From IMG/VR virus record IMGVR_UViG_2929074307_000005: a stretch of 64,000 bases of DNA; one strand, given 5' to 3'. Positions 5,059-42,803 of this stretch are shown here, piece by piece. How positions within the stretch are numbered: the stretch's first letter is position 1; the number at the start of each line of letters is the position of its first letter. Below the pieces are notes generated by a model. It saw only the letters and a program-made list of their open reading frames with translations, ran no database searches and was not told where the DNA came from. Source of the DNA: a virus. Both the position numbers and the translations under genes were made by a program.

Positions 5059-7158
5059 TTAGGCGGCCTGCTTGGTTGGCAGGCTGTTATTGTTAGCGGT
5101 AGGCCATGCCTCCGGTGGGATTTTCATGTTTGTATTTTCGCGAATCCATTCTAGTCCGCGCTGGATGTGAGGTCGTCCATACTTGTCGGATGGCATACCT
5201 CTGTCTCTGTAGTCCTTTACGAACCCTTGGTCTTTCTTCCGGAGACGATTGGCGAATGCTCTAGCCGTTTCATGAACGACACAGTCTGGTGGAGCTACGT
5301 TAACTCTCACCCACTCGGCGCCTTCTTTTACTTTTGGGTAGCCATCAACGTGAGGCAGGCCACGCTGTATCCAGTGATAGATACTAGTAAGATGTTTGCC
5401 ATGGATTTTCGCAAATTCGGTTTTACTAATACATCCCTTTGGGACGCGTAATTTAGAACGCAGTGGGATATATGTGCTCATCCATTTAGTCGCGTCCTCC
5501 ACTGGGACGCCTTTAATTTTATCATACGGCATGCCGGCCCGGATAGGACCTTTCAGTTTATCTGGGTGGATGCCAATTCGTCTGGCAAAGTCAGACATAA
5601 TCTCATATCCTTCTGGAGGAAGCCCCCTCACATTTATGGCTACCCAATCCAATCCGTGCTGGATTACCACCGCCCGGTGTTTATCAATGGGCAGGCCTCG
5701 CCTTATCCAATCGGTAATTGTTCCGGAAGCCACCCCCACGCGTTTAGAGAACGCATGCTGAGATTCACTTCCTTGTTCAATTACCCTGACGTTACTAGCC
5801 ACCCACTCCAAGCCTTCTTTTTTTATTGGGTATTTATTAATGTTCGGCAGGCCATTTATTAACCACCTGTGAACATTTCCTGCACCGACCGCCTCCTTTG
5901 CCATTCTATTAAACTCGGCTGGCGTCACGCACCCCTCTGGCACCACCACCCTTAATTCTCGCAATTGCCCATCAAACTCGCCTATCTCTAGACCAGTTGG
6001 AAACTCATACCCGCACTTGCAGACTTTAGCCCGCTCGGCGCGAACTTCTTTACACTCCGGGCACCGACGCAAACGCCCGTCGCCCATCGATTGCAATCTT
6101 CTCTTGCGAGCGTCGCCATCGAGAGACCACTCAATAGGCGCATCGAACCAGCCGTGATCCATCCAGAGTCCAGCATGGTCGATCACTATCGCCATGTCTT
6201 TGCCTTCTGCTTTACGCAGCACGCGACCGATCATCTGCAAAAACAGTGCAAGTGATTTCGTGGGGCGCATGAGGATGACGGCGTCAATCGCCGGCAAATC
6301 GAAGCCTTCGGTAAAGACTTCGACGTTCGACAAGACCTTAATTGCTCCTGACGCCAGCGCGTTAACAGCACTGTCGCGTTCATCTGAATTTGTCGTGCCG
6401 TCTATGTGACGAGCTGGCACGCCGCTTTCATTGAACCGATCCACCAATGCCTTGCTCATATCTACGCTTGCTGCAAAGATCAGGGCGCGCTTGCCGCTAG
6501 CCTTTTCATTGTACTCTCGCACGGCATCGCCAATCAAAACTGGCGTGTTCATAACGCCTGCCAAATCCTTTTTGGCGTAATCGCCAGCTTGCATTCGTGC
6601 GGCAGACAAATCTGGATCAGACGGCGCGAAATACCTAAACTCTGAAAGATAACCTTCGTCGATCAGTTCGCGTGTCGATGGGCCAACCGTTAGCTCGTCA
6701 AACCAATTCGACAGGCCCTTACCGTCAAGGCGCTCCGGCGTAGCGGTGAGACCAATGTGCTTTGCATCGGAAAGTTGCTCACGGATCGCCGACCAAGACT
6801 TAGCTGCAAGGTGGTGGCACTCATCCCAAAAAACGGTCGAAGGGCGAGGCAAGTCATTTATACGACGAGCTAATGTGCCATGCGAAACGATCTGGACAGG
6901 CTTGCTGTAATCTGGTTCTGCGCGAGGCGACACTACGCCAAAATCAATGCCGGCTTTAGCAAATGAAGACGCAGCTTGGCGCTCGATTTCCTGACGGTGA
7001 CAAATAAACCAGACTGGGCCTTCCTGATCTGCGATCATAGAAGTCGCTACTTTGGTTTTACCGGCACCTGTTGGCATTTGAATTACAACGCTGCTTGATC
7101 TTTCCAACGCTTTGCGCGCGCTATCAATCACGTCAGCCTGATATGGGCGAAGTGTCAT
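5059..7158 (-). CDS. SF2 (DEAD/DEAH-type) helicase with a C4 zinc ribbon and five C-terminal ~45-aa tandem HTH-like repeats
   Basis: Walker A PTGAGKT and DECHH box. Zinc ribbon CPECK...CKCGYEFP. Repeats carry the consensus xFAxxxG....WIxRGLP..K.G...E.LEWV. Confidence 0.85.
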   Translation of the reverse strand: MTLRPYQADVIDSARKALERSSSVVIQMPTGAGKTKVATSMIADQEGPVWFICHRQEIERQAASSFAKAGIDFGVVSPRAEPDYSKPVQIVSHGTLARRINDLPRPSTVFWDECHHLAAKSWSAIREQLSDAKHIGLTATPERLDGKGLSNWFDELTVGPSTRELIDEGYLSEFRYFAPSDPDLSAARMQAGDYAKKDLAGVMNTPVLIGDAVREYNEKASGKRALIFAASVDMSKALVDRFNESGVPARHIDGTTNSDERDSAVNALASGAIKVLSNVEVFTEGFDLPAIDAVILMRPTKSLALFLQMIGRVLRKAEGKDMAIVIDHAGLWMDHGWFDAPIEWSLDGDARKRRLQSMGDGRLRRCPECKEVRAERAKVCKCGYEFPTGLEIGEFDGQLRELRVVVPEGCVTPAEFNRMAKEAVGAGNVHRWLINGLPNINKYPIKKEGLEWVASNVRVIEQGSESQHAFSKRVGVASGTITDWIRRGLPIDKHRAVVIQHGLDWVAINVRGLPPEGYEIMSDFARRIGIHPDKLKGPIRAGMPYDKIKGVPVEDATKWMSTYIPLRSKLRVPKGCISKTEFAKIHGKHLTSIYHWIQRGLPHVDGYPKVKEGAEWVRVNVAPPDCVVHETARAFANRLRKKDQGFVKDYRDRGMPSDKYGRPHIQRGLEWIRENTNMKIPPEAWPTANNNSLPTKQAA

Positions 7159-8216: not shown

Positions 8217-8894
8217 TTAGCGGGTGTTGTACTTGCCAACGACGCGGTGACAGACTGGCCAATCCGCGCGAAATTCCTTGAATTCCTTATGCGGGTTGTA
8301 CTGTTCCAGCATCCATTCGCGGTCATTGAAGCCGACGAGTCGCTTGATGATAGCTTCGTTCTCGTCCATTGCGCTTGTGTGATAAAGAATTACATCTTCA
8401 TCGCGAACCGGCGGCAAATTCGGGTTCACGAGTGCGGTTTCACCCGGACGATAGGCAGGAACCATTGATTCCCCGGACAATAGAAGGCCGTATCCACCTT
8501 TAACGCCCTGCAGTACTGCAGGCATTTTCATATAGCTGATTGGATCAAAGGTGATGATAACGTGTCCATCGCCGCCCTTCGCTGCAGCGTAAACGGGCAG
8601 GCCGCGCTCTTGGCTTACAAGCTGGTCGCCCGGGATTGGTGCAGGTGTAAAAGTATCAGCAATCGGCTTAGCTGATGACGCGGTCATTTCGCCATTGCCG
8701 AAGGCAAGCCAATCCTCATTAAGATCCAGCGCACGAGCAAGGCGGGCTACAAATTCAACACTGGCCCCGCGCTTCCCGCTTTCCAAAAGACTGATCGACG
8801 ACTTGTCTCGCCCAATAAGAGCGGCAAGGTCAGCCTGGCTCATTTCTTTAAGGTCACGCGCCAAACGAAGGCGCTGCGCGAAATCTTTGTCCAT
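8217..8894 (-). CDS. cI: CI-like prophage repressor (HTH_XRE N-domain plus S24 LexA-like peptidase C-domain)
   Basis: HTH MSQADLAALIGRDKSSISLLESGKR. S24 motifs GESMVP (catalytic Ser) and IIKRLVG (Lys). Start taken at MDKDF (8894). Confidence 0.85.
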   Translation of the reverse strand: MDKDFAQRLRLARDLKEMSQADLAALIGRDKSSISLLESGKRGASVEFVARLARALDLNEDWLAFGNGEMTASSAKPIADTFTPAPIPGDQLVSQERGLPVYAAAKGGDGHVIITFDPISYMKMPAVLQGVKGGYGLLLSGESMVPAYRPGETALVNPNLPPVRDEDVILYHTSAMDENEAIIKRLVGFNDREWMLEQYNPHKEFKEFRADWPVCHRVVGKYNTR

Positions 8895-8937
8895 GTTGCG
8901 CTTTTCGCATATTGTTGTGAAAATGTAACGTGCGAAA

Positions 8938-8957
8938 ATGTCACCACATGTTGACAT
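8938..8957. promoter_or_regulatory. Operator palindrome ATGTCAccacatgtTGACAT; TGTCA half-sites recur at ~8968 and ~8980
   Basis: Imperfect 20-bp palindrome overlapping the -35 of the rightward promoter, in the cI-cro intergenic region. Confidence 0.45.
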
Positions 8958-8979
8958 GGATGCGAATCTGTCATATATA
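8951..8979 (+). promoter_or_regulatory. Sigma70-type promoter TTGACA-17 bp-TATATA (PR-like, rightward)
   Basis: Consensus -35 and -10 hexamers with 17-bp spacing. Confidence 0.55.
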
Positions 8980-9428
8980 GGTGTCATCAACCGGCGCAAA
9001 AGACGCTGGACAGTTCGAAGGAGGGCCTACCTCATGATGCCAGAGAACATCCACCCAAGGATATCGGCACTCAATAGATAGAAGCCGCGCTAACGCGCAA
9101 TTGAAACTGAGGAGAGAGCAAATGACCAATTCCGCCGAAAGAAGCGAACCGGCTCTCGTTGAGGCGCCGCCGTAGGATCAATAGGGACGCTGCTGACCTT
9201 AATAGGGTCAGTGGTGCTTTCGGCGTTCCTGAATGTCGAGAGATTTATAGGACGGCGTTGTGAGCCGGCACCACCCGCTGCTCCGCCGTCCTCGTAATAC
9301 CCCGGCTTACACGAGGAGGGCTTGCGCCACTTCTACACCGGGGGTTCCTTCGCGAGTACCACCCCGCGCAGGACAACAGATGGCTTCACCAAAGTCATTT
9401 GTCAACCAACACCACACACGAGGAGATC

Positions 9429-11956: not shown

Positions 11957-12807
11957 TGCGAGGCATCGCGGCACTATTTGCGGGCTTTGTGGCCCTTCTA
12001 GTCACTATCACCGTCGTATTCGGCTCTTGGTACACCATCGACCAAGGCGAAAGAGGCGTGCTGTTGCGCAACGGGGCGGTTGTTGGCTCTGCACAGCCCG
12101 GTCTTGGCTTTAAAACGCCTTGGATTGAGGAGGTTGTGAAGGTGTCTGTGCAGTCACGCGCTCAGATTTACAAGGAAGTGCCCGCTTATTCGAAAGATCA
12201 GCAGTCAGCCATCCTTGCGCTTTCTGTCAATTATCGCATTCCCGCAGATCAGGTGACTGAAGTCTATGGCACGTATGGAGGTGAGGATGGCTTGCTTGCT
12301 CGTCTTGTTGATCGGCGCGTCAATGAAGATCTGAAGACCGTTTTTGGCAGGTTTACCGCTGTGCAGGCCATTCAGGAACGAGGGCGGTTAAATATGGAGG
12401 TTGCGACAGCCGTTCAAAATTCGGTCAAAGGTCCGGTGATTATCGACAGCGTGCAGATCGAAAACATCGACTTTTCCGATGTCTATGAAGCCAGCATTGA
12501 GCAGCGAATGCTTGCGGAAGTCGAAGTGCAGAAACTTCGCCAAAACGCCGAGCGCGAAAAGGTTCAAGCCGAAATCACTGTGACACAGGCAAAGGCCAAT
12601 GCGGACGCTGTGCGTGCTCAATCCAATGCTGAAGCCGAAGCAATCCGTATCAAAGGCGACGCCGAAGCGGCTTCTATCAAGGCACGTGGCGATGCGCTGC
12701 GCGAAAATCCCGGTCTTGTGGCTCTGACGCAAGCCGAGAAGTGGAATGGCCAGTTGCCAACCACGATGTTACCGGGCGGCTCGGTGCCGATGCTGCAGCT
12801 GCGATAA
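11956..12807 (+). CDS. SPFH / band-7 (prohibitin/HflC-like) membrane protein
   Basis: N-terminal transmembrane helix, SPFH core, and C-terminal Ala/Glu-rich coiled coil (AEVEVQKLRQNAEREKVQAEI...). Confidence 0.8.
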   Translation: MRGIAALFAGFVALLVTITVVFGSWYTIDQGERGVLLRNGAVVGSAQPGLGFKTPWIEEVVKVSVQSRAQIYKEVPAYSKDQQSAILALSVNYRIPADQVTEVYGTYGGEDGLLARLVDRRVNEDLKTVFGRFTAVQAIQERGRLNMEVATAVQNSVKGPVIIDSVQIENIDFSDVYEASIEQRMLAEVEVQKLRQNAEREKVQAEITVTQAKANADAVRAQSNAEAEAIRIKGDAEAASIKARGDALRENPGLVALTQAEKWNGQLPTTMLPGGSVPMLQLR

Positions 12808-12871
12808 GCAAACTCGGCGGGGTTCGCTCCGCCACACCACCACCCCACCAAACACACACGAGGAGTTAATT

Positions 12872-13645
12872 ATGGCTATCAGCCTATCAAGCCTCAAATC
12901 GACGAAGAGAAACGACCGGCCAGTCATGCTTTTGTATGGCGTCGACGGTATCGGCAAGACCAGCCTTGCTGCTGAGTTTCCAGATCCGATCTATCTGGCC
13001 ACAGAAGGCGAGCGTCCGCCGTCTGATATTGAAATGGCAACGCCAGGCACGATTGAAAGCTTCGAAGACCTGCTCAACATCATCGGCGAACTGCTGACCG
13101 TTGAACATGATCGGCGCACCGTCATTATCGACAGCGTCGACGGATTAGAACCGCTTGTCTGGGCGGCAACCTGTGCCCGCTTAGGAGTAAGCAGTATTGA
13201 AGAGCCTGGGTTCGGGCGTGGTTACGTCGAGGCTGATAGCGAGTGGCACGAGCTGATGTCTGCAGTCTCAGCGCTCTCGCGTACTGGAATCCACGTCGTG
13301 ATGCTGGCCCACCCTGAGATTATTCGGTTCGACAGTCCAGTCACCGATCCATACTCACGCTACACGATAAAGTTGCATAAACGAGCCAATTCTCTCGTCC
13401 GGGAAAAAGTCGATATCGTGGCCTTCATGAATTATCGCGTGTCCATCAAGGAGAAAGAGGTCGCTCGCCAAACGAAGGTGGCGCACGCGGAAGGTGGCAA
13501 GGAGCGTAATATTCATCTGAACGAAGGTGCGGGCTATGTGGCGAAAAATCGCTTCTCTATGCCGGACTCGATCGTTTACCGAAAAGGTCAGGGCTACGCT
13601 GAGTTAGCAAAGTTCTGGGCTGAAGAAAAAGCTGAAGCTGCATAG
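12872..13645 (+). CDS. P-loop ATPase, Sak4/AAA_24-like (RecA-fold recombination-associated)
   Basis: Walker A GVDGIGKTSLA near the N-terminus; size and context (next to an SSB-like gene). Confidence 0.65.
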   Translation: MAISLSSLKSTKRNDRPVMLLYGVDGIGKTSLAAEFPDPIYLATEGERPPSDIEMATPGTIESFEDLLNIIGELLTVEHDRRTVIIDSVDGLEPLVWAATCARLGVSSIEEPGFGRGYVEADSEWHELMSAVSALSRTGIHVVMLAHPEIIRFDSPVTDPYSRYTIKLHKRANSLVREKVDIVAFMNYRVSIKEKEVARQTKVAHAEGGKERNIHLNEGAGYVAKNRFSMPDSIVYRKGQGYAELAKFWAEEKAEAA

Positions 13646-14881: not shown

Positions 14882-14937
14882 GCGCCAACAAGCTGCCGGT
14901 GCTTTCGCGCCGGTGGCTCCGCAAGAGTGAGGGAAGA

Positions 14938-15126
14938 ATGAATTACGAATACAACGTTGAAGAAGCTACAGAATACCTTTCGACCGGAGGTCTCGGCGAA
15001 GTGATCGGGCTGACTAATATTGCGAGGCAGAACCTACAACCCAAGGTTCAAGTCGATACCGATATGGCAATGGCGCTTTGTTTGCTTGCTGATGAAGCAT
15101 TGAAGGCGCGGAAGGTTGAAGTATGA
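14938..15126 (+). CDS. Hypothetical small protein
   Basis: Shine-Dalgarno sequence before ATG 14938. Confidence 0.4.
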   Translation: MNYEYNVEEATEYLSTGGLGEVIGLTNIARQNLQPKVQVDTDMAMALCLLADEALKARKVEV

Positions 15127-15395
15127 ATCTAGCAGAGTTTAAAGCATGGCTTGAAGGCTATAGCGCGTCTTTTAAGGAAGGCGCCCCCAGCCAAGAACAG
15201 TGGGCTATTATCAGCAAGAAACTGGGCGGTGTGATTGCGCCATTTGCAACACAGCCTGCAATTTCAAAACTGCCACCTATTGGTGAGCCTTGGCTGGATC
15301 GTCAAACCGTGCCGAAAGTTTGGTACGAAACCAAGATTATCAGTGACGACCGACCAATGATGCAGTCATGGAATAGCGCCGTCCTTCACGGATAA
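15123..15395 (+). CDS. Hypothetical protein
   Basis: ATGA overlap with the upstream gene. Confidence 0.45.
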   Translation: MNLAEFKAWLEGYSASFKEGAPSQEQWAIISKKLGGVIAPFATQPAISKLPPIGEPWLDRQTVPKVWYETKIISDDRPMMQSWNSAVLHG

Positions 15396-16523: not shown

Positions 16524-16748
16524 ATGAAGTTTAATTGCGGGCTAACACCAGAAGAGCTACGGGAAGAGAAACGCAAGAAATGGTGCGTGTGGCATAAATG
16601 GTTTGCTTGGCATCCTGTGCGCGTTGGTAGATCGGATTGCCGCTGGCTTGAAACAGTTGAGCGTAAAGCTCAGTATGTTTCTGTCGGTATAATTCTGGAA
16701 GCCAGACCCTATGAGTGCGAATACCGCGCTGTTGAGAAGCCATCGTAA
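16524..16748 (+). CDS. Hypothetical Trp/Cys-rich small protein
   Basis: Shine-Dalgarno sequence upstream; TAATG overlap with the next gene. Confidence 0.4.
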   Translation: MKFNCGLTPEELREEKRKKWCVWHKWFAWHPVRVGRSDCRWLETVERKAQYVSVGIILEARPYECEYRAVEKPS

Positions 16749-17674
16749 TGGCTCCACTCCCCAAACCACAATCGACAACCGTCGGCGCGATCTACGCTGC
16801 TTACGAGGCCCAGGCGAAATCCTGGGACTCGTGGGGCATCAGCGTGGGCGAGGCGGGCACCGAATGCGACAGGGCGCTTTGGTATGGTTTCCGATGGGCG
16901 TCAGCCCACGAAGTCCACAGCGGCCGACAGCTACGCTTGTTTGCAACGGGTAACATCGAAGAGGATCGGCTTGTCGCTGATCTCGAGCGCATCGGCGTCG
17001 ACGTGCACGGGCAGCAAGACAAGATCCGGCTTGTGTCAGGGTTCGTGCGCGGCAAATGCGATGGGAAGGCAATGAATGTGCCTGAAGCGTCGAAGACTGA
17101 GCATCTGCTAGAGTTTAAATCGAGCAATGCCAATGGCTTCGCGCTGATTGTTAAGGATGGTTGTCAGAAAGCAAAGCCGCTTCATTATGCGCAGTGCCAG
17201 CTTGGAATGCACGCCTTCGGTCTGACACGATGCCTTTATCTCGTCTCGTGCAAGGACAGCGACAGCCTTTATTCCGAGCGCATCGAATACGATCTGGAAT
17301 TCTGCCTGCGACTTGTGGCGCGCTGCGAACGCATCGTGTTTTCGGACATGCCTCCAAGCAGAATTAGCGAAAACCCGGAGTTCTTCGGATGCATGTTTTG
17401 CAAGCACAAAGCGGTCTGTCACCACGACGCACAGCCACGAGTGAACTGCCGAACCTGCCTTCATGCTCAGCCTGAAAGCGGCGGTGATTGCCATATCTCA
17501 TGCGCACGATGGGCAAAGCCTTTGTCGATCGACGAACAGCGTGACGGCTGCCCGGCGCACTTGTATCTGCCGGGCATGGTGAATGGCGAACAGATCGACG
17601 TCGATGAGGATGCCGAGACGATCACTTACAGGATGAAGTCGGGTGAGGTGTGGGTGGATGGGGCTAAGGGTTAG
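16748..17674 (+). CDS. Cas4-like PD-(D/E)XK exonuclease with an Fe-S cysteine cluster
   Basis: EFK (ExK) motif and QxxxY-like HYAQCQ; N-terminal Cys plus C-terminal CMFCKHKAVC (C-x2-C-x5-C). Confidence 0.7.
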   Translation: MAPLPKPQSTTVGAIYAAYEAQAKSWDSWGISVGEAGTECDRALWYGFRWASAHEVHSGRQLRLFATGNIEEDRLVADLERIGVDVHGQQDKIRLVSGFVRGKCDGKAMNVPEASKTEHLLEFKSSNANGFALIVKDGCQKAKPLHYAQCQLGMHAFGLTRCLYLVSCKDSDSLYSERIEYDLEFCLRLVARCERIVFSDMPPSRISENPEFFGCMFCKHKAVCHHDAQPRVNCRTCLHAQPESGGDCHISCARWAKPLSIDEQRDGCPAHLYLPGMVNGEQIDVDEDAETITYRMKSGEVWVDGAKG

Positions 17675-18285
17675 GACCAGTATTGGGAAAGCTCACGAAA
17701 CTCATGGTCTAACCGGTCTCTCAGTGACTGTGCTTGAAGTTGAAGTATTCGATATCGATTACGTAAATCTAACTCGTCGTCGTGCCCAAAATAGTGCTTG
17801 TGAAACGACTGGATTGTTCCATTTAACGATTGAAAAGAATAAACAAACCCGGGGGCTAGTACCTTGGTGGCCCTGTCAATGTAAGTATCGTCAAATGGGC
17901 CAATATTAAACCCGTCGACGTCAGGATCGCGGTTGGCTAGTTGTTCATCGAATGTCATGCATAGCATTGAGCTGCACCAATCAGAGGCCGCTATCATAAC
18001 GTCAAGCTGCTCTTTGAACGACCGTCTAATGCTGGCCGCATGCTGCCGACGATTAGCGTCCAACTGTTGCTTTGCAACGACCACAGCAACGAGAACTGGG
18101 ATTCCAGCAAGGATCGTTCCGTAATTCTTCATAAGATCCAAGAATGCTTCGCCGAAGGTCGGCATCTTTGAATAGAGGGCGCCAAATACCATCGCGCATA
18201 CGCCGACATATACAACCGTTGCGACGTACAAAATCGATGAAGAAAACTGCTCGTTTTCTTTTTCAGCTTTCTCTTTATCAGACAA
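17671..18285 (-). CDS. Two-transmembrane membrane protein on the opposite strand in a low-GC island (moron; candidate exclusion or abortive-infection gene)
   Basis: Two N-terminal transmembrane helices plus a ~120-aa soluble domain; AT-rich relative to its flanks; antisense to the early operon. Confidence 0.55.
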   Translation of the reverse strand: MSDKEKAEKENEQFSSSILYVATVVYVGVCAMVFGALYSKMPTFGEAFLDLMKNYGTILAGIPVLVAVVVAKQQLDANRRQHAASIRRSFKEQLDVMIAASDWCSSMLCMTFDEQLANRDPDVDGFNIGPFDDTYIDRATKVLAPGFVYSFQSLNGTIQSFHKHYFGHDDELDLRNRYRILQLQAQSLRDRLDHEFRELSQYWS

Positions 18286-18300
18286 GGTAACGCCCCCAAC

Positions 18301-20052
18301 ATGCTAACCTTACGAAACTACCAGTCAGAAGCAATAGACGCCGTATTCGACTATTGGCAAGAGGAGGCAGGCAATCCGCTTGTTGATCTTGCGACGGGCT
18401 GCGGCAAGTCGTTGGTTATGGCGTCTTTGATCCAGCGCCTCGTTGAAGGCTGGCCTGATATGCGCGTGATGGTCGTCACCCACGTCGCGGAGCTGATCGA
18501 GCAGAATTATCTGGAATTGCTTGGCGTCTGGCCGTTTGCGCCTGCAGGCATCTATTCGGCTGGTTTGGGTCGTCGTGATGCGCGCAGTCAGATCGTTTTT
18601 GCCGGCATTCAGACTGTTCATAACAAGGCGCAGAAAATCGGTCACGTCGACGTCCTTATGGTCGACGAGTGCCACCTGATTCCGATCAACAGCAACACGA
18701 TGTATCGCAAGTTCATTGATGCGCTGCTCGAGATCAACCCGGACATGAAGATCCTCGGACTGACTGCCACACCTTATCGGCTCGACAGCGGTCGCTTGGA
18801 TGAGGGCGCGGATCGTCTGTTTGATCAGATCGTCTACACCTACGGAGTTGCTGACGGTATCCGCGACGGCTTCCTTGCTCCACTGACGAGCAAGCCGACA
18901 GCAACAGAATACGACGTTAAAGGCGTCGGGCGGCTTGGCGGCGACTACAAACAGCGCGCGCTGGAAGAGGCAATCAATCGAACAGACCTCAATGATGCTG
19001 TGGTTTCTGAGATCATAGCAAAGGGCGCTGATCGTCGCTCCTGGCTTTGTTTCTGCGCCGGTGTAAAGGCTGCGCTGGACGTGCGCGACGTCTTCAGATC
19101 TCGCGGCATTACATGCGAGGCCGTCACGGGGGATACTCCTAAGGAAGAACGCCGCCGCATCCTTGAGGACTTCAAAGCATACCGCATTCAATGTGTGACG
19201 AACAATTCAGTTCTTACGACAGGTTTCAATCATAAGGGTGTTGATTTAATTGCATTTATGCGCCCGACGCTGTCTTTGAGTTTGTACGTCCAAATGGCTG
19301 GGCGTGGCACTCGTCCGCTCTACAAGGCTGGTGCGCCACTGGATACGGTTGAGGAGCGGCTTACTGCTATCTCGGCAGGCCCTAAACGTAATTGCCTCGT
19401 CCTGGATTTCGCGAAGCTTGTCGATCGGCACGGCCCTGTCGACATGGTCGAGCCTAAAGCGCCAAGCGCTGGCAATGGGGAGCCGCCAATCAAGATCTGC
19501 CCGACAGTGCCAGACGACAATGGGGCGATTGGCTGCGGTGAGAAGGTGCACATCTCGCTGATGAAATGCCCATGTTGCGGATATGACTTCCCTCCTAACG
19601 AGGACGAGAAGCTAACCCGCCAAGCCGCTGACGTTCCGATTGTCAGCACCGCCGAAGCAGAATGGCGCAAGGTAACAGGCCGGACGTTTCACTTTCACGA
19701 AGGCAAGGGCGACAAGCCGCCTTCGGTCAAGTGCAGCTACATCGCAGGATATACGCAGATCAATGAATGGCTCTGCCCACAGCATAGCGGGTTTGCGCAA
19801 ACTAAGGCGCATCGATGGTGGACGCAGCATGGAGGCCAGCGGCCGTTTCCAAAGACGGTCATGGAGTGGCTTGAGCGCCAGCGCGAGTTGCTCACCACCG
19901 ACGAAATCAGCGTCGTGCCGAACGGCAAATACTGGAATGTGAAAGACGTGCGGGCTGGAGACGTAGCAGATAACGACAACGTTCCGGAGCCTGCGAATGA
20001 CAATGTGTCTGTTGGCCTTTCGGAGCTTCTAGACGACGAAATTCCATTTTGA
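18301..20052 (+). CDS. SF2 helicase with a zinc ribbon and a C-terminal SSB-tail-like DDEIPF
   Basis: GCGKS Walker A and DECH box. Zinc ribbon CPTVPDDNGAIGCGEK...CPCCGYDFP. C-terminus ...LLDDEIPF. Confidence 0.85.
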   Translation: MLTLRNYQSEAIDAVFDYWQEEAGNPLVDLATGCGKSLVMASLIQRLVEGWPDMRVMVVTHVAELIEQNYLELLGVWPFAPAGIYSAGLGRRDARSQIVFAGIQTVHNKAQKIGHVDVLMVDECHLIPINSNTMYRKFIDALLEINPDMKILGLTATPYRLDSGRLDEGADRLFDQIVYTYGVADGIRDGFLAPLTSKPTATEYDVKGVGRLGGDYKQRALEEAINRTDLNDAVVSEIIAKGADRRSWLCFCAGVKAALDVRDVFRSRGITCEAVTGDTPKEERRRILEDFKAYRIQCVTNNSVLTTGFNHKGVDLIAFMRPTLSLSLYVQMAGRGTRPLYKAGAPLDTVEERLTAISAGPKRNCLVLDFAKLVDRHGPVDMVEPKAPSAGNGEPPIKICPTVPDDNGAIGCGEKVHISLMKCPCCGYDFPPNEDEKLTRQAADVPIVSTAEAEWRKVTGRTFHFHEGKGDKPPSVKCSYIAGYTQINEWLCPQHSGFAQTKAHRWWTQHGGQRPFPKTVMEWLERQRELLTTDEISVVPNGKYWNVKDVRAGDVADNDNVPEPANDNVSVGLSELLDDEIPF

Positions 20053-21366: not shown

Positions 21367-21939
21367 ATGCATGCACCGCTACCCAGCGGGCCTTTCGGCT
21401 GCGTCCTTGCGGACCCGCCATGGTCTTTCAGAACATACGGTAAAAAAGACGTCGCACCGGCACGAGGCCGTCAGCCTTACGGCGTGATGTCACTTGACGA
21501 TATCAAAGCACTGCCTGTCGAACAGGTATGTGCTCGCGACTGTTTGTTGTTCATGTGGACGGTTTCACATCTACAGGCTGCTGCGATCGAGGTGGCTGCC
21601 GCATGGGGCTTTAAGCCTGTTAGTGTTGCTTTTGTCTGGGACAAAGGCCGCATGGGCATGGGTTATTGGACACGGCAGGAAGTCGAAATCTGTCATCTGT
21701 TCAAGCGCGGTAAGCCTCGCCGTCTATCGAAAGGCGTGCGCTCCCTGATCAAGGCCCCGCGCCGCGAGCATTCCCGCAAGCCAGATGAGCAATACGGACG
21801 CATCGAGAGGCTGGTTGACGGTCCTTATCTCGAGCTCTTCGCTCGTCAGGCGTGGCCGGGCTGGTCTTCATGGGGCAACGAGTCTGATAAGTATGTTGCC
21901 GCAAACGATAATCAGGATTTGCTGGGGAGGGTGGCTTAA
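21367..21939 (+). CDS. N6-adenine DNA methyltransferase, MT-A70 family
   Basis: DPPW motif (CVLADPPWSF); conserved initiation element upstream. Confidence 0.8.
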   Translation: MHAPLPSGPFGCVLADPPWSFRTYGKKDVAPARGRQPYGVMSLDDIKALPVEQVCARDCLLFMWTVSHLQAAAIEVAAAWGFKPVSVAFVWDKGRMGMGYWTRQEVEICHLFKRGKPRRLSKGVRSLIKAPRREHSRKPDEQYGRIERLVDGPYLELFARQAWPGWSSWGNESDKYVAANDNQDLLGRVA

Positions 21940-22751
21940 TGGCGAAGCTCTCCAAGGCGCAGGCGAAAACACACACTCAAGCAGTTGCTATCCTTCAGCA
22001 AGAACAGTTGTCGGAAGATGATAAGGAATTCGTATATCGCAACTGGAACGAGGGCGCGAACCACGTAAACGGCGCAGCTGGTGCATTCTTCACCCCATTC
22101 GATATGGCGTTTGATTTTGCGATAGATGCTGGCGGCGGTCGCATTATTGACCTGTGTGCTGGGATTGGAATGCTCTCTTACGCCATTTGGCAGCGTAGCC
22201 GTTTCAACGACAATAGGCCGCAAATTACCTGCGTCGAGCGTAATGCCGATTATCTTGAGGTCGGGAAAAAGTTGCTGCCAGAAGCAGAATGGATTCACGC
22301 TGACGTATTTGATGTTCTCGATATGGGACTGGGGCACTTCGATACTGCGATTAGCAACCCTCCGTTCGGAAATATCAAGCGGACCAGAAACTCTCCGAGA
22401 TACAGCGGCAAGGATTTCGAATTCCATGTAATTGATATTGCGTCACATTTAGCGGACTACGGCACGTTCATCGTTCCCCAAATGTCGGCAGGCTTCAATT
22501 ATTCCGGGCGGAATAGCTATGAGCGTCAGACCAGTGGCAAAGCCGTTAAGTTTCAGGAGTTGACCGGTCTGCATTTCGATGCAGGCTGCGGCGTCGATAC
22601 TGCCTATTTCATCGATCAGTGGAAAGGCGTCTCTCCAATGTGCGAGATCGTTTGCGTTGAATTTACAGATGCGCCCGTCGTTGCCGCGAAAGCGCAACCG
22701 GCGAACGACAATGTGTCAGCTCAGCCCAGCCTCTTCGGTGACGCAGCATGA
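21939..22751 (+). CDS. N6-adenine DNA methyltransferase (NPPF class)
   Basis: SAM-binding IDLCAGIGMLS and catalytic ISNPPFG; C-terminus ...PANDNVSAQPSLFGDAA. Confidence 0.75.
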   Translation: MAKLSKAQAKTHTQAVAILQQEQLSEDDKEFVYRNWNEGANHVNGAAGAFFTPFDMAFDFAIDAGGGRIIDLCAGIGMLSYAIWQRSRFNDNRPQITCVERNADYLEVGKKLLPEAEWIHADVFDVLDMGLGHFDTAISNPPFGNIKRTRNSPRYSGKDFEFHVIDIASHLADYGTFIVPQMSAGFNYSGRNSYERQTSGKAVKFQELTGLHFDAGCGVDTAYFIDQWKGVSPMCEIVCVEFTDAPVVAAKAQPANDNVSAQPSLFGDAA

Positions 22752-23065
22752 GCCATCCAGATCAATGTCACGTCTGCTTCCGTCACGCCGTGGGACTCGG
22801 GGTGCAGGAGGGCAAGGAACCGATCCGCTGGCTATGCAAGGAGTGCGCAGACATTGCCGAGCATATCCGTTCCCGACGCAGGATGGACCCTTACGAACTG
22901 CGGGCCCTTGATACCGGCGTTGAGGCGGTTGGGGAGTTTTTGCAGTCCATACAGAAAACCGACCTCGCCGACTGCGATGAGCTTGAAGCGCGCATTCTGG
23001 TGAAAACAGCGTGGGAGGCTTGCGGGCGAGGGATGAGGGAAGCACTGAAGGAGGCGCCGTTTTGA
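22748..23065 (+). CDS. Hypothetical Cys-rich protein (CHVC...CKEC)
   Basis: ATGA overlap with the upstream gene. Confidence 0.45.
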   Translation: MSHPDQCHVCFRHAVGLGVQEGKEPIRWLCKECADIAEHIRSRRRMDPYELRALDTGVEAVGEFLQSIQKTDLADCDELEARILVKTAWEACGRGMREALKEAPF

Positions 23066-24093
23066 CCGCCTACTACAACGAATTCGATCCTAAAGCTGCC
23101 GCTTGGCTGCGCGAGCTGATCAAAGCAGGACACATAGCCCCGGGAGATGTTGATGAGCGTTCAATTGTCGATATTCGACCTGCCGACCTCGTCGGATACA
23201 CACAATGTCACTTCTTTGCCGGTATCGGCGTCTGGTCCTACGCATTGCGTCGAGCAGGATGGCACGACGACCGTCCTGTCTGGACAGGTTCATGTCCCTG
23301 CCAACCTTTCAGCGCGGCAGGCAAAGGAGATGGGTTTGCTGACGAGCGGCACCTATGGCCGCACTTCCACTGGCTTATTCAAAACTGCCGACCTGCAGTC
23401 GTCTTTGGCGAGCAAGTTGCGAGCAAGGACGGACTCGGCTGGCTCGACCTTGTACAAGCTGACCTGGAAGGATCGGGCTACGCCAGCGGGGCGGTCGATA
23501 CCTGCGCTGCGGGCTTCGGTGCGCCGCACATCAGACAGCGCCTCTATTGGGTGGCCCACGCCGACGACACGCGATCACAAGGACGGAGGGGAGTGTCAGA
23601 ACGTTCCGCTGAACGCATTGTTGGGGCGAGTGGCGTGGCTGACTGGATGGCCGACGGCGAGATGTGGGGGCAATCCGGAGGGGTACGGGAACGCCGATCG
23701 TCAGAATGGACCGAGAGGAAGGTTGGAGGACACCGTGCCACTGGCAGGTTGGCCGACAACGACAACGACGGACGCATTGCGCCACCCATCACCGAACTTC
23801 AAAACAAAGAACGTCACACTGAACCACGCAGCAGCAATGGCAGGCCCGGCCCGACTAACGGCCACTGGTCAGATGCTGACTGGCTCTTTTGCCGGGATGG
23901 AAAGTGGCGGCCAGTTGAACCCGGCACATTCCCGCTGGCTCATGGGTCTGCCGCCAGAGTGGGACGATTGCGCGGTTACGGCAATGCAATCAATGCCGAG
24001 CAAGCGCAAGCGTTCATCGAAGCGTATCGCGAAACCGAATTAGTTGCAGCCAACGACAATCACTGCAGCAATACGCTGTGGCCCTCCGCATAG
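23062..24093 (+). CDS. DNA cytosine-5 methyltransferase
   Basis: Motif I FFAGIGV, motif [11 protein letters not shown], and a QxRxR-like HIRQRLY. Start uncertain (TTG 23062). Confidence 0.7.
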
Positions 24094-24271: not shown

Positions 24272-26452
24272 ATGCATACTAACATCACGTCCGTTGTCGA
24301 AGAAGACCCAATGCTCGATGTTGCGTTGTCGTATCAGGCACAAAACTGGCCCGTTTTCCCATGCCGCCACCGCGACGAGGAGATTATCGACCCGCAAACC
24401 GGCGAAATTGAAATCCTTGCCACCAAGACCCCGCTGACCAGCAACGGGTTCCGTGGCGCGACGCTGAATGAGCGCATCGTCCGTGAATACTGGCGCCGCA
24501 ACCCTTACGCAATGATTGGCGTGCCAACAGGTGCGCCTATAGGTGCATGGGTTCTAGATATCGACCCGAAACACGGCGGCGACGAAACGCTTGCCGCGCT
24601 TGAGGCCGCACACGGCGCGCTACCTGCTACGCTAACCGCAGAAACCACGAGCGGCGGACGGCACTATTTCTTTCGTCATCGGCAGGGCGTTCGCAACCGT
24701 GGCGCGCTTGGCTCCGGCGTCGACGTGCGCGGTGACGGTGGTTATGTCATTGCGGCCGGCAGCGTGCCCGAGGTTGGCCTGCCTTACCGTTGGATATCTG
24801 AGCAAGAGCCGATCGACGCGCCAGACTGGTTGCTGGAACTGGTGCTGCCGCGCTCATATGAGAGCACATACACCGCAGCACCGTCTGTTAGCGGCAAGAT
24901 CAATGACCGCTATGTCGAGCGTGCAGTTCAATCTGAGCTGGACGATCTTGCGCTTGAACCGATGGGTAATCGCAACAACCGGCTGAACGACGCCGCGTTT
25001 CGTTTGGGCACGTTCGTTGGAGCCGGAGCTCTGGCTGAATCCGAAGCACGCGCTCTGCTACAAGACGTGGCACGAGGTTGGGGCCGGGACTGGCCGCGCT
25101 GTGTAAAGACGATCGACAACGGACTTGCTGCCGGTGCCCGCAGCCCGCGTAGTGTGCCACAGAACGACAACGATAACACGCGTCTGGTCGATATCAGCCG
25201 TATGATTGCCAATGGACTGGCGAAAGCGGAGGCGCGCACCGACGTGGTCGCAGAGCCAGTTTCGGATTTCGATTCATCTATAAACCAACAGGAACAAACT
25301 ACTGAAAATAAACGCGCAATCATTGCTACGCCATTCGTATGGAAAGACCCGGCGACGCTTCCACGGCGCGAGTTTGCATTCGGTAAGCACTTCATTCGCA
25401 AGTATGTGTCGGTGACGGTCGCGCCGGGCGGTCTCGGCAAAACTGCGAACAGCATCGTCGAAGCATTGGCCATGGCGTCGGGTAAAGCGCTCAATGGCAC
25501 GAAGCCGCCGAAGCGTCTTAAGGTCTGGTTGTTCAATGCCGAAGATCCGCGCGACGAGCTTGAGCGCCGCATTATGGCCGCTTGTATTCATTTCAATCTG
25601 AAGCCAGCAGATATCGACGGGCATCTGTTTCTAGACACAGGCCGCGAGCAGGAATTGGTCATTGCGATCGATGACAAGAAAGGCGTGCGGATTCAGGAAC
25701 CCGTCGTTGAAGCTGTTGTTGAAACGATCTCGGAGCTTGGCATTGACGTGATGATTGTTGACCCGTTCGTGTCGACGCACCAAGTCAATGAAAACGACAA
25801 CGGCGCAATCGACAAGGTGGCCAAGCTTTGGGCGCAGGTAGCGGATCGAACAAACTGCTCAATCGATATCGTGCATCATCTGCGAAAGGTGAGCGATCGT
25901 GAAGCAACTGTTGAAGACGCTCGCGGTGCGGTTTCGCTGATCGGTGCGGCACGTTCGGTGCGCGTGCTTAACCGTATGTCGGAAGCGCAAGCCAGTGAAG
26001 CTGGCCTTACACATGAAGCGCGGTTTTCATATTTCAGCGTGGTCTATGGCAAGTCGAACTTGTCAGCACTGTCGCACAAGGCTGACTGGCGCAAGCTGGA
26101 AAGTGTCGCGCTGGGGAACGGGCAGGGCCTGACCAAGCCTCAAGACCATGCGCCGGTCGTGACGTCATGGGCATGGCCGACAAGTGAGGAAGTTGCTGAG
26201 ACATTGACCGAGGACGAACGCGACGCAATCCGGGGTGTTGTGAACGGCGGCATGTATAAGCCGGCACCGCAGGCCAAGGATTGGGTAGGGCGCGCCGTTG
26301 CGTATGCACTGCAGCTGGACGTCGACGAAGAGACGGAAAAGAAGCGGGTGGGCATGATCACCAAAGCGCTGTTTGCAGAGGGCTTCCTAATGAAGGTGGA
26401 AGACCGGGACCCTGTTCAACGCAGGGCCACGACGTTTGTTCGAGCGATGTGA
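24272..26452 (+). CDS. Bifunctional primase-polymerase (PrimPol N-domain) fused to a RecA-like/AAA_25 ATPase domain
   Basis: PrimPol motifs DIDPKHGG and GYVIAAGS; P-loop APGGLGKT; phage P4-alpha-like organisation. Confidence 0.8.
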   Translation: MHTNITSVVEEDPMLDVALSYQAQNWPVFPCRHRDEEIIDPQTGEIEILATKTPLTSNGFRGATLNERIVREYWRRNPYAMIGVPTGAPIGAWVLDIDPKHGGDETLAALEAAHGALPATLTAETTSGGRHYFFRHRQGVRNRGALGSGVDVRGDGGYVIAAGSVPEVGLPYRWISEQEPIDAPDWLLELVLPRSYESTYTAAPSVSGKINDRYVERAVQSELDDLALEPMGNRNNRLNDAAFRLGTFVGAGALAESEARALLQDVARGWGRDWPRCVKTIDNGLAAGARSPRSVPQNDNDNTRLVDISRMIANGLAKAEARTDVVAEPVSDFDSSINQQEQTTENKRAIIATPFVWKDPATLPRREFAFGKHFIRKYVSVTVAPGGLGKTANSIVEALAMASGKALNGTKPPKRLKVWLFNAEDPRDELERRIMAACIHFNLKPADIDGHLFLDTGREQELVIAIDDKKGVRIQEPVVEAVVETISELGIDVMIVDPFVSTHQVNENDNGAIDKVAKLWAQVADRTNCSIDIVHHLRKVSDREATVEDARGAVSLIGAARSVRVLNRMSEAQASEAGLTHEARFSYFSVVYGKSNLSALSHKADWRKLESVALGNGQGLTKPQDHAPVVTSWAWPTSEEVAETLTEDERDAIRGVVNGGMYKPAPQAKDWVGRAVAYALQLDVDEETEKKRVGMITKALFAEGFLMKVEDRDPVQRRATTFVRAM

Positions 26453-26455
26453 AAA

Positions 26456-26481
26456 GAGCGCCCTACGGGGCGCTTTTTTTG
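26456..26481 (+). terminator. Rho-independent terminator after the primase
   Basis: GAGCGCCC-tacg-GGGCGCTC stem followed by T7. Confidence 0.7.
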
Positions 26482-26600
26482 TTAGATCGACGCACGGTTT
26501 ATCCAAAAGTATTCTGAAATGGCTTGCTTGCTCCCACTAATCTGGTTGATCGGTCGAAAACAAAGATCTATTGAAAGAAGGGGATAACAGGCGGGGTAAA

Positions 26601-26930
26601 ATGACTAGGTTTTTTCTGTTCTTCTTGATTTCTTGCACTTTGATCTCTGGAGTAAACGCTGCTGTTTATGAGACTTTGAACAAACTGCCGGATAAAATGA
26701 GGATGCTATACATCACTGGGATGGGCGAAGGGTTCATGTGGTCCAGTGCAGCAGTTAAAAACAATTACGATAAGATATACTGCCCACCGCAACACATCGG
26801 GTTGAATGGGGATCAATACGTGGCAGTGCTTGACGGATTTGTTAAAAGGCATCCAGAAATGGAGGCAGATAAAATGGAGATAGGCCACCTCATGTATACG
26901 GCTCTTCAAGAGAGCTTTCCGTGCAAATAA
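26601..26930 (+). CDS. Small secreted protein (signal peptide) in a low-GC island
   Basis: MTRFFLFFLISCTLISGVNA signal-like N-terminus; AT-rich. Confidence 0.5.
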   Translation: MTRFFLFFLISCTLISGVNAAVYETLNKLPDKMRMLYITGMGEGFMWSSAAVKNNYDKIYCPPQHIGLNGDQYVAVLDGFVKRHPEMEADKMEIGHLMYTALQESFPCK

Positions 26931-26987
26931 TACTGTTTAAGTGGCTGGGTACAACCCGCTGTCACAATCAAAATACAACCATAGGTA

Positions 26988-27135
26988 ACGCGTAAGTCTT
27001 GTTGCGTAAGTCTCAAAAAACCTAAAAAGACTTGCGCAAAAGCACGCTGCTTTTAGTGCGTAAGAGTTCTTATATAGAAACTTACGCACAAAGCGCGCAG
27101 CGCGTAGTTCTATGCGTTTGAGAACTACGCACTTT
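26988..27135. repeat. Iteron-like array: GCGTAAG(T/A) repeats in both orientations, plus a 10-bp inverted repeat GCGTAGTTCT...AGAACTACGC
   Basis: At least five copies of GCGTAAG or its reverse complement within 150 bp; perfect inverted arms at 27102-27131. Confidence 0.5.
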
Positions 27136-27311
27136 TTAGAAAATTTCCTGATTGAAAAATACAACCTGATTTGAGGTTGGTTGAAATTATGCCGGTTGAC
27201 GCTTGACCGACCTGTCACTCCCGCCATGATGTGAATTGTTCCGCTACCAACGGGACAACCGCAACGGAAGCCCACCAAGCTGACGCACCATGAAAACGAG
27301 GAGAGACACGG

Positions 27312-27821
27312 ATGCGAAACATCTGGTTTATGAGCGATACCCATTTTGGGCACGCGAACATCATCAAATACAGCCGAACGCAGTTCGATAGCGTTGATGA
27401 GATGGAAAGCGCCATCATCGAGCGCTGGAATGAAAAGGTGAGTAAGCAAGACCTGGTTTATCATCTCGGAGATTTTGCATGGTCGGCAAAAGACGCAAAG
27501 CGCGTCAGACCTAAACTCAATGGCTCCATTCGCCTGATTGTTGGCAATCATGATGACATTCCTGCGCTGGCATCTGCTGGACTATTCCAAAGAATTCAGA
27601 TGTGGCGTCAGTTTTCCGAAATCGGAGTAACTGCATCGCACTTACCAATGAGGCGAGAACAAATCCGCCACGGCAGTATGAACGTCCATGGCCACGTACA
27701 CGGCAATACCAGTGGGTTGGAAAACTTTCATTTCGATGTATCTGCGGAAAGCGTGAATTATTCGCCAGTCCATTTCGACGAGATTGCAGACTGGGCTAAT
27801 TCGAACAGGGCATCATCATGA
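27312..27821 (+). CDS. Calcineurin-like metallophosphoesterase
   Basis: DTHFGH, GDF and GNHD motifs; aaaACGAGGAGagacacggATG upstream. Confidence 0.8.
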   Translation: MRNIWFMSDTHFGHANIIKYSRTQFDSVDEMESAIIERWNEKVSKQDLVYHLGDFAWSAKDAKRVRPKLNGSIRLIVGNHDDIPALASAGLFQRIQMWRQFSEIGVTASHLPMRREQIRHGSMNVHGHVHGNTSGLENFHFDVSAESVNYSPVHFDEIADWANSNRASS

Positions 27822-29970: not shown

Positions 29971-30046
29971 GCCCTTGTAGCTCAGTTGGGAGAGCGGCTG
30001 CCTTGTAAGCAGATGGTCCGGGGTTCTATTCCTCGCGAGGGCACCA
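29971..30046 (+). tRNA. tRNA-Thr (anticodon UGU), 76 nt with encoded CCA
   Basis: Cloverleaf folded by hand: acceptor GCCCTTG/CGAGGGC, D-arm GCTC..GAGC, anticodon loop cTTGTaa, T-arm CGGGG/CCTCG; one G-A mismatch in the anticodon stem. Confidence 0.65.
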
Positions 30047-30053
30047 ATTCAAT

Positions 30054-30129
30054 GCGGAGTGGAGAAGTGGTCATCTCGTCTGGTTCATACCCAGAAGACC
30101 GTCGGTTCGAATCCGACCTACCGCAACCA
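30054..30129 (+). tRNA. tRNA-Met-like (anticodon CAU) with an imperfect acceptor stem; possible degenerate phage tRNA
   Basis: Perfect T-arm GTCGG-TTCGAAT-CCGAC and anticodon arm TCTGG-ttCATac-CCAGA. Initiator-like 3' end CCGCAACCA. Acceptor stem has two mismatches. Confidence 0.45.
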
Positions 30130-41450: not shown

Positions 41451-41602
41451 TCTTTACTCTCGCAACTCTGTACTACCGGTCTACCCCCTGTACGGAATCG
41501 TCCGATTGCGTACAGGGGCAAAACACCCTGTCCACAAATTATCTTGACATGGTTTCGAACAGTGGAGATATTTCGGACATCCTATTCGGACGAAATGAGC
41601 CC
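41451..41602. promoter_or_regulatory. Res site and divergent promoters between tnpA and tnpR
   Basis: Inverted repeats CTGTACGG...CGTACAGG in the divergent intergenic region. Confidence 0.5.
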
Positions 41603-42752: not shown

Positions 42753-42803
42753 TTTTTGGGCCATCTCGCCGATCATTGATTTATCTTCCACAAAAATCAG
42801 AGT

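Follow-up and report, generated by a model that had tools for sequence, protein, structure and literature searches.

tm2, a two-transmembrane protein gene of 16-3-like prophages with an invariant membrane motif and an exchangeable, hypervariable C-terminal cassette

What does a gene of opposite orientation do within the rightward early operon of a temperate phage? This question is raised by a 64,000-nucleotide stretch of viral DNA (IMG/VR record IMGVR_UViG_2929074307_000005; "the window" below), in which a 204-amino acid (aa) open reading frame (ORF) on the minus strand (17671-18285, TTG start, TAA stop) fills the gap between the genes for a Cas4-domain exonuclease (16748-17674, plus strand; phrog_1990, E = 4e-96) and a superfamily 2 (SF2) helicase (18301-20052, plus strand; ResIII/Helicase_C, phrog_16). 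We use the name tm2 for this gene, which encodes a protein with two transmembrane (TM) segments. A preliminary description of the window, made from its letters alone, had reported an opposite-strand ORF of this length between these two genes, and the ORF listing agrees with it exactly. Our analysis indicates that tm2 joins a conserved membrane module to a hypervariable C-terminal cassette that is swapped by recombination, and that the gene is accessory cargo with a possible role in superinfection exclusion.

Because long chance antisense ORFs are frequent in this 53% GC window, tm2 might be a spurious antisense ORF in a non-coding spacer. This explanation is effectively refuted. A word-index search returned 66 homologues, all annotated as "hypothetical" and all of the same length, and an exhaustive hidden Markov model (HMM) search of 1.84 billion representatives returned only 80 matches (E ≤ 1e-3), in which length and architecture are kept. 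When the window was compared with three relatives that carry the same cassette type, the ratio of nonsynonymous to synonymous divergence (dN/dS) in the N-terminal half of the gene was 0.04-0.09 at a dS of 0.65 to >2, which points to strong purifying selection on this half. These values and the 66-80 same-length homologues argue that tm2 is more than a chance ORF. Moreover, its predicted structure is confident, and the gap holds no alternative, since the ORF listing contains no plus-strand ORF of more than 88 aa between the exonuclease and helicase genes.

The tm2 family is nevertheless small, unannotated and uncharacterized. Searches of Pfam gave nothing above noise for the window protein, for 67 family members or for nine distant members; SLATT, DUF4231 and related Pfam families were not among the matches listed for the 67 members (the best 25 of 52 weak families, E ≤ 0.5). 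PADLOC-DB 2.0 returned no defence-protein match (E ≤ 1), PHROGs and NCBIfam gave no match above noise, and no homologue was found by tblastn against 50,697 phage genomes. Phages 16-3, RHph_TM3_3_14B and AP-16-3 lack a tm2 homologue, and no description of the family was found in the literature. Distant members are lone opposite-strand genes in other elements, one adjoining an integrase gene at a prophage end (locus L032; loci in other genomes are given by such numbers) and another adjoining a resolvase gene (L033).

The preliminary description had assigned the protein two N-terminal TM helices. Hydropathy indeed places TM segments at approximately residues 18-38 (18172-18234, minus strand) and 52-71 (18073-18132, minus strand), and exactly two such segments were found in 76 of the 84 family members. 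AlphaFold2, which addresses the structure of the soluble domain as well, predicts an all-helical protein (predicted local distance difference test score, pLDDT, 85.5) with helices at residues 3-40, 44-89, 91-108, 145-166 and 171-200. The first of these spans TM helix 1, while helix 44-89 runs unbroken from the membrane, as TM helix 2, into the C-terminal bundle. Lysine and arginine residues average 4.5 in the 20 residues after TM helix 2, whereas the loop has 1.4 and the acidic N-terminal tail 1.9; by the positive-inside rule, this clustering places both termini and the ~120-aa C-terminal domain in the cytoplasm, as had been proposed. tm2 is thus predicted to be an inner-membrane helical hairpin, with both ends inside, that carries a cytoplasmic four-helix bundle. 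The C-terminal domain had also been called unassignable, and it remains so after searches of Pfam, PHROG, PADLOC and NCBIfam and after fold searches, none of which gave an informative match.

Conservation is concentrated at two places in this architecture. Alignments revealed an invariant motif, GIPVL..A..VAKQQLD..R.QH, and the invariant or nearly invariant residues (Y55, G61, P63, V64, L65, V70, A71, K72, Q73, Q74, L75, R79 and H82) cluster in TM helix 2, which contains the invariant G61-I-P-V-L..A-V..V-A, and just beyond it. The juxtamembrane part, K72-Q-Q-L-D-x-x-R-x-Q-H82 (18040-18072, minus strand), is (near-)invariant, with R-x-Q-H kept even in the most distant members. The second conserved place is the C-terminal tip, where the last six residues read L-S-Q-Y-W-S (17674-17691, minus strand) and the tyrosine and tryptophan are 95% conserved.

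Between these two motifs lies a variable cassette (approximately residues 84-198; 17692-18036, minus strand), delimited by breakpoints, identity and heptad core, that makes up the body of the predicted cytoplasmic bundle. Among 52 full-length homologues, the median pairwise identity of the N-terminal part was 81%, whereas that of the C-terminal part was 17.0%, the value obtained for shuffled sequences (17.0 ± 3.1). The 52 proteins represent 32-37 distinct C-terminal types. Even where N-terminal parts were at least 85% identical, the C-terminal parts were less than 25% identical in 509 of 547 pairs, while the flanking exonuclease and helicase of the same loci were 95-98% identical. The length of the C-terminal domain is tightly held at 118-124 aa, and structure prediction for a second type (P0005; pLDDT 85.3) gave the same helix boundaries. 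In 61 sequences aligned by ungapped anchoring, a hydrophobic heptad a/d pattern with a period of 3.5 was conserved, such that core columns were 78-100% hydrophobic and the columns in between were free. Since the core columns are conserved and the intervening ones are not, the fold and core of the bundle are kept while its surface is randomised. Within a single cassette type (window versus L030), dN/dS in the C-terminal half was 0.18; taken with the values for the N-terminal half, this indicates that both halves are protein-coding and constrained.

This constraint bears on the idea that tm2 is a selfish addiction element or toxin, with a toxic hairpin that would ensure post-segregational persistence and a variable tail under relaxed constraint. 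The hairpin resembles small membrane toxins in architecture, and the weak TTG start is conserved. However, the dN/dS within a type and the retention of length, fold and heptad core do not fit a relaxed tail, and no adjacent antitoxin candidate was found in the ORF listing. We consider this explanation very improbable.

The limits of the variable region are sharp at the DNA level. On the left, DNA homology ends at 17688-17695 in most loci, usually at 17691, the end of the LSQYWS codons; on the right, it resumes at 18035-18040, directly after R-x-Q-H. A second class of relatives diverges across the whole gene apart from the TM helix 2 motif. In the closest cassette match (window versus L028), dS was 0.046 in the cassette compared with 0.65 in the N-terminal half, and DNA identity was 97-100% at 17650-18099 against a background of 88-90%. 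Furthermore, L012 and L017, which represent two phage backgrounds with helicases of only 55% identity, carry one and the same cassette type. Taken together, these comparisons indicate that the variable part is swapped by recombination at fixed breakpoints (17691 and ~18035). Hypermutation of the diversity-generating retroelement (DGR) type was considered and rejected as the source of the diversity: the 64-kb window contains no second copy of the cassette (best chance match, 19 nt), and the variation is total rather than adenine-specific as in a DGR target.

The closest copy of the window's cassette, found in Brucella pseudogrignonensis (L028, 10001-10516, and L029), is frameshifted to 171 aa by the loss of one T from a TTTT run (corresponding to window positions ~17775-17778). 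This frameshift could reflect decay, sequencing error or phase variation.

Loci collected by way of tm2 all show tm2 in the slot between the exonuclease and helicase genes, which is a matter of ascertainment, and we therefore sampled by the exonuclease gene instead. Of the 80 loci collected in this way, 79 had both flanking genes and form the junction sample; they are phylogenetically related, and hence the counts that follow are not of independent events. The slot was occupied by tm2 in 24 of the 79 loci, by other opposite-strand cargo in 20 and by forward-strand cargo in 15; it was empty in 13 and unclear in four, and in three an intein lay inside the helicase gene. Some assignments of the other opposite-strand cargo rest on slot length and the longest ORF.

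In the empty junctions (including L092, L095, L096, L098, L100, L104, L105, L114, L115, L117, L120 and L129), the stop codon of the exonuclease gene either overlaps the start of the helicase gene or directly adjoins it (as in ..GTAACATGATG..), and the ancestral state is therefore translational coupling of the two genes. The C-terminal tail of the exonuclease is longer in relatives with an empty slot (..WVDGANDNKPNNKQVT) than in the window (..WVDGAKG), which shows that cargo insertion reshaped the end of this gene. The opposite-strand cargo comprises four unrelated families, tm2 included, of which three encode membrane proteins: besides tm2, there is a family of 181-188 aa with one TM segment (12 loci: L079-L082, L086-L088, L091, L106, L112, L119 and L124), a soluble family of 146-168 aa (four loci: L056, L090, L116 and L123) and a family of 99-104 aa with two TM segments (four loci: L103, L108, L111 and L118). 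None of these cargo proteins had a Pfam or PADLOC match. Forward-strand cargo included endonuclease VII/HNH genes, a sigma factor, helix-turn-helix (HTH) proteins and others; phage 16-3 and its sequenced relatives carry forward-strand sigma-factor/HNH genes in this slot, and L053 holds tm2 together with the sigma-factor gene that fills the slot in phage 16-3. In the three loci with an intein (L102, L110 and L113), ~1.1 kb of additional DNA splits the Walker A region of the helicase gene after approximately residue 34; its sequence resembles that of an intein carrying a homing endonuclease (C-HAAGTPIL.. after ..ATGC).

The preliminary description had also read tm2 as an independently acquired moron lying in an AT-rich island of the rightward operon. 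A GC-window calculation confirmed a dip that is genuine but moderate: GC content is 0.463 in tm2, 0.569 in the exonuclease gene, 0.554 in the helicase gene and 0.532 in the whole window, and of the 615-bp segments between 9000 and 56900, the body of the prophage, only 1.4% reach a value this low. A dip was likewise measured in 22 relatives, with averages of 0.457 for the gene and 0.551 for its flanks, and is present in every variant. Because relatives have empty junctions or other cargo, phage 16-3 lacks tm2, distant copies are lone opposite-strand genes and GC content is low, the view that tm2 is accessory cargo at a multi-cargo junction is well supported by these comparisons. The acquisition is old within this phage lineage, and what has been exchanged recently is the intragenic cassette.

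The junction data bear equally on a role in the lytic cycle, in which tm2 would tether or organise the replication-recombination machinery at the membrane, or act on a host membrane protein as a takeover factor. Its place in a replication module, between exonuclease and helicase, would suit such a role, and the invariant TM helix 2 suggests a specific membrane partner. Nonetheless, tm2 lies on the strand opposite to the early operon and is frameshifted in L028, and most close relatives either lack it (empty junctions included) or have other cargo in its place; its variable domain does not co-vary with neighbouring replication proteins that are 95-98% conserved, and distant members adjoin an integrase gene away from replication genes. 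We therefore regard a lytic-cycle role as distinctly unlikely.

How would an opposite-strand gene be expressed from within this operon? The tm2 and exonuclease genes meet tail to tail, with the TAA of tm2 (minus strand) overlapping the TAG of the exonuclease gene (plus strand) at 17671-17674, so that no space is left for a terminator between them; the same overlap recurs in the gene calls of L001, L054 and L053. At the other end, a spacer of only 15 bp (18286-18300) separates the divergent start codons of tm2 and the helicase gene. A GGGGG Shine-Dalgarno sequence for tm2 (18293-18297, minus strand) lies 7 nt ahead of its TTG, and the AAGG ribosome site of the helicase gene (plus strand) overlaps the tm2 start codon. 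This layout is kept in both helicase backgrounds, and the TTG start is conserved across all main-group loci, as is the GGGGG site.

The most conserved DNA in the vicinity lies upstream of tm2, in the spacer together with the opening ~125 nt of the helicase gene (18286-18425; minus strand with respect to tm2), and is a candidate for the tm2 promoter or 5' region, antisense to the helicase gene. Among type-A relatives, nucleotide diversity was 0.007-0.05 at 18275-18425, compared with 0.10-0.15 over the remainder of the helicase gene; the N-terminal part of tm2 had values of 0.12-0.29. Synonymous diversity in the first 40 helicase codons was likewise reduced (0.04-0.12 versus a mean of 0.27), and no comparable suppression was seen at the 3' end of the exonuclease gene.

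Within this region lies a junction box, CGTAAGGTTAG-CAT (18301-18314, minus strand; ATGCTAACCTTACG on the plus strand, where it forms the first five helicase codons), that accompanies opposite-strand cargo. The box, which reads ATG/TTG-CTAACCTTACG as helicase codons and CGTAAGGTTAG on the minus strand, was found in 41 of the 44 loci with opposite-strand cargo, spanning the four unrelated cargo families and two helicase types, and in none of 32 other loci (forward-strand cargo, 0 of 15; empty, 0 of 13; unclear, 0 of 4). All four kinds of opposite-strand cargo ORF begin 2-25 nt from the helicase start codon. The box may be either a shared promoter or leader, or what remains of one ancestral insertion and is now used as an anchor for recombination; it contains a candidate -10 element, TAAGGT (18307-18312, minus strand), whose promoter role is conjectural. 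Two hexamer pairs chosen by eye, TTGCCA-N17-CTATTG and TTGCTT-N16-TAAGGT, were not conserved in the second helicase background, and we claim no promoter from them. Given the low GC content, the conserved TTG and GGGGG, the conserved upstream DNA and the junction box, it is plausible that tm2 forms a transcription unit of its own.

Orientation is also relevant to the suggestion that tm2 is a lysogenic-conversion or anti-defence factor whose bundle inhibits variable host proteins, such as defence sensors or membrane transporters. tm2 is accessory, hypervariable cargo, and the early region does carry anti-defence genes (Gad2 in L029 and three methyltransferases in the window). Such genes are, however, normally co-oriented with the early operon and thereby made immediately upon infection, and no similarity of tm2 to known anti-defence proteins was found. 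This possibility appears slightly more remote than a lytic-cycle role.

The combination of opposite-strand, low-GC cargo with a strictly conserved membrane module and a rigidly attached bundle of shuffled surface is most economically explained by a prophage-expressed determinant of conflict between phages, and the bundle surface is in fact diversified and shuffled between phages within a single host species. The explanation we favour, albeit tentatively and at somewhat below even chances, is that tm2 is a superinfection-exclusion (Sie) or abortive-infection (Abi) determinant of the SieB type that acts in the lysogen. The hypervariable bundle surface would be the specificity module and would bind a protein from an entering or competing phage, while the invariant TM helix 2, the juxtamembrane motif and the aromatic C-terminal tip would form the executing module, which might form oligomers, make the membrane permeable or act on a membrane protein of the host. 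Because tm2 is on the opposite strand, early lytic transcription of the resident phage would be able to silence it through convergent, overlapping transcription. Like the membrane topology, the activity of tm2 in the lysogen, the binding of a target, the hairpin as effector and the silencing by the resident phage are inferences.

SieB aborts the lytic growth of superinfecting phages, and the phage that encodes it protects itself by means of Esc. The similarity to tm2 extends to several features: P22 SieB has 192 aa (compared with 204 aa), two N-terminal TM helices, a basic juxtamembrane stretch and a C-terminal domain of ~115 aa, and its gene is likewise on the opposite strand in the early operon of a temperate phage. 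P22 sieB lies within the early-left operon and has its own promoter; tm2 matches it in orientation, while its promoter is only a candidate. That SieB is accessory cargo expressed from the prophage can be counted as a further likeness, by analogy. SieB, whose family (Pfam PF14163) is also represented in phage lambda, mediates superinfection exclusion of the abortive-infection type. Partway through an infection by P22-like phages, it brings macromolecular synthesis to a halt (PMC10883804). Homology between the two was tested and rejected: PF14163 was matched neither by the 67 members (E ≤ 0.5) nor by the nine distant members, while the P22 SieB control scored 4.3e-29, and hhalign of tm2 against P22 SieB gave a probability of 0.2% over 7 aligned columns. 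tm2 also differs from SieB in its invariant TM helix 2 motif and its hypervariable, recombining bundle, and we know of no such description for SieB. We therefore view tm2 as analogous to SieB in architecture and placement rather than homologous to it.

Exclusion might alternatively operate by blocking injection, as in P22 SieA, T4 Imm, HK97 gp15 and lactococcal Sie2009, which are likewise small inner-membrane moron proteins. A hairpin of the SieA/Imm/gp15 type would then sit at the DNA-entry site, where the variable domain would bind the cytoplasm-reaching end of tape-measure or ejection proteins, so that DNA is kept out and the cell survives. Being small, predicted to reside in the inner membrane and encoded by a prophage at a moron position, tm2 would suit this role, and its hypervariability would suit an arms race with fast-evolving entry proteins. 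Against it stand the short loop that is the only predicted periplasmic exposure, the cytoplasmic location of the variable domain by the positive-inside rule and the lack of detectable homology to any Sie family. Injection-blocking proteins share no sequence similarity with tm2, most of which is predicted to be cytoplasmic. Several sequence types of Sie protein occur per phage group, three in the case of SieA (PMC10883804), whereas the diversity of tm2, with more than 30 types, is far higher and is limited to one domain. Because the variable domain is predicted to be cytoplasmic, we favour an abortive-infection or post-entry mode over an injection block, which we consider unlikely.

Two other comparisons concern the bundle itself. 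In the HsdS subunits of type I restriction-modification (R-M) systems, target-recognition domains are of constant size, cannot be aligned across specificities and are bounded by conserved flanks that serve as recombination anchors. tm2 resembles HsdS, as generally understood, in evolutionary architecture only, since it is a membrane protein of different fold and target and has no DNA-binding signature. Among the fold matches to tm2 were the sensor bundles of 4HB_MCP, NarX/NarQ and TorS, which are continuous with TM helices, and GPCR-BRIL fusions, with scores that were generic throughout. In such sensors the bundle is on the periplasmic side, flanked by a TM helix at either end; that of tm2, by contrast, is C-terminal, predicted to be cytoplasmic and without an output domain. 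A bolder version of the exclusion reading is that tm2 is the first member of a single-polypeptide exclusion system, in which the hairpin executes exclusion or suicide, more than 30 recombining bundle cassettes anchored at R-x-Q-H and LSQYWS set recognition in the manner of HsdS, and the junction is a dedicated, promoter-equipped docking site; we hold this to be rather doubtful as a whole, if a little less so than an injection block.

Several observations weigh against a SieB-type role. No defence, Sie or Abi model matched tm2 in the Pfam, PADLOC, PHROG and NCBIfam searches; SieB, SieA, Imm and SLATT have neither sequence nor fold similarity to it, and fold searches returned only generic four-helix bundles, with designed proteins scoring best. 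Most of the protein is predicted to be cytoplasmic, which sets it apart from the majority of Sie proteins that block injection. A search within ±10 kb for a co-varying partner or target yielded none, in that identity profiles of pairs sharing a cassette had no consistent second shared segment over this range, and repressor type does not track cassette type. The frameshifted copy in L028 and L029 suggests that tm2 is dispensable without obvious cost. Regulation is similarly problematic: a consensus scan found no sigma-70 promoter for tm2, a terminator scan gave one weak terminator-like site at chance level, and the two helicase backgrounds do not share a conserved -35 region. The low diversity upstream of tm2 may have another cause, in serving the translation of the helicase or in being left over from a single ancestral insertion, and the relatedness of the junction loci, mentioned above, reduces the weight of the counts.

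The window itself is a prophage related to Rhizobium/Sinorhizobium phage 16-3. Its closest protein relatives are in Brucella (Ochrobactrum) pseudogrignonensis, B. intermedia and related Brucellaceae; the host is Brucella/Ochrobactrum and the phage a 16-3-like temperate siphovirus. Prophages of this type are reported to be highly prevalent in Ochrobactrum genomes, where they are the most prevalent type (PMC5492332). The layout begins with an integrase fragment (1-1254) and a CI-like repressor gene (8217-8999, minus strand), between which, in the lysogeny region, lies a gene for a 699-aa SF2 helicase-like protein (5059-7158, minus strand; ResIII and Helicase_C) that may be another prophage-expressed accessory or defence gene. 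The prophage of L028/L029 has an IS21-type insertion close to its repressor gene. The rightward early operon encodes Sak4, HNH, DUF669, DnaN, the exonuclease, the helicase, three methyltransferases and a Prim-Pol primase, and is followed by two phage-borne tRNA genes, tRNA-Thr(TGT) and tRNA-Met(CAT) (29971-30129, between the early and late regions), and by the terminase and tail genes. These tRNAs were the sole Rfam matches in the window, and none fell in the tm2 region.

Other parts of this prophage and its relatives vary as well. The three consecutive DNA methyltransferase genes (21367-24093; phrog_359, phrog_3820 and phrog_363), presumably for anti-restriction, differ in presence among relatives. 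In the close relative L029, a Gad2-family gene (12658-13461; PF26128, anti-Gabija) lies between the DUF669 and DnaN genes, a site that holds two small unrelated ORFs in the window (14899-15395) and is thus another variable slot of the early operon. A second low-GC gap (26450-27300, GC 0.43-0.46) follows the Prim-Pol primase gene; an ORF there (26937-27551, minus strand), also of 204 aa, was rejected as a candidate since its translation is implausible as a protein and has no family match, and in L028 the analogous place is taken by a gene call of 165 aa on the opposite strand. Of all low-GC islands in the window, the strongest (57055-59603, minus strand; GC 0.40-0.44) contains two family-2 glycosyltransferase genes right after the tail-fibre genes at the prophage end, which are candidate lysogenic-conversion genes acting on surface polysaccharide. 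Finally, a Tn3-family transposon (38475-43748) lies within the structural-gene region and may have inactivated the prophage; it carries genes for a 991-aa transposase (38475-41450, minus strand), a resolvase (41549-42208), a GNAT acetyltransferase (42198-42752) and an enzyme dependent on pyridoxal phosphate (42804-43748).

What is new here is a narrow protein family, a bundle whose identity has fallen to the random level while its fold and fixed anchors are conserved, and a multi-cargo hotspot with a shared junction sequence. By analogy, tm2 can plausibly be grouped, as a variant, with the membrane exclusion morons encoded by prophages. Exclusion genes carried by prophages influence the set of phages that are able to share a host, and new mechanisms of defence are found among them; almost nothing is known of such genes in Brucella/Ochrobactrum and 16-3-like prophages. 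SieB, whose mode of action has gone unexplained for decades, may have a functional counterpart in tm2, and the pairing of a conserved membrane module with a randomised surface in near-identical phages amounts to a natural experiment for mapping specificity through swaps of the cassette. The junction, for its part, is a defined hotspot whose ancestral state is empty; it takes up several alternative opposite-strand genes for membrane proteins, and the sequence they share there could act as a portable promoter. Even if exclusion is not its function, the tm2 family remains a striking example of diversifying evolution at the level of a domain, here in a membrane protein of phages.

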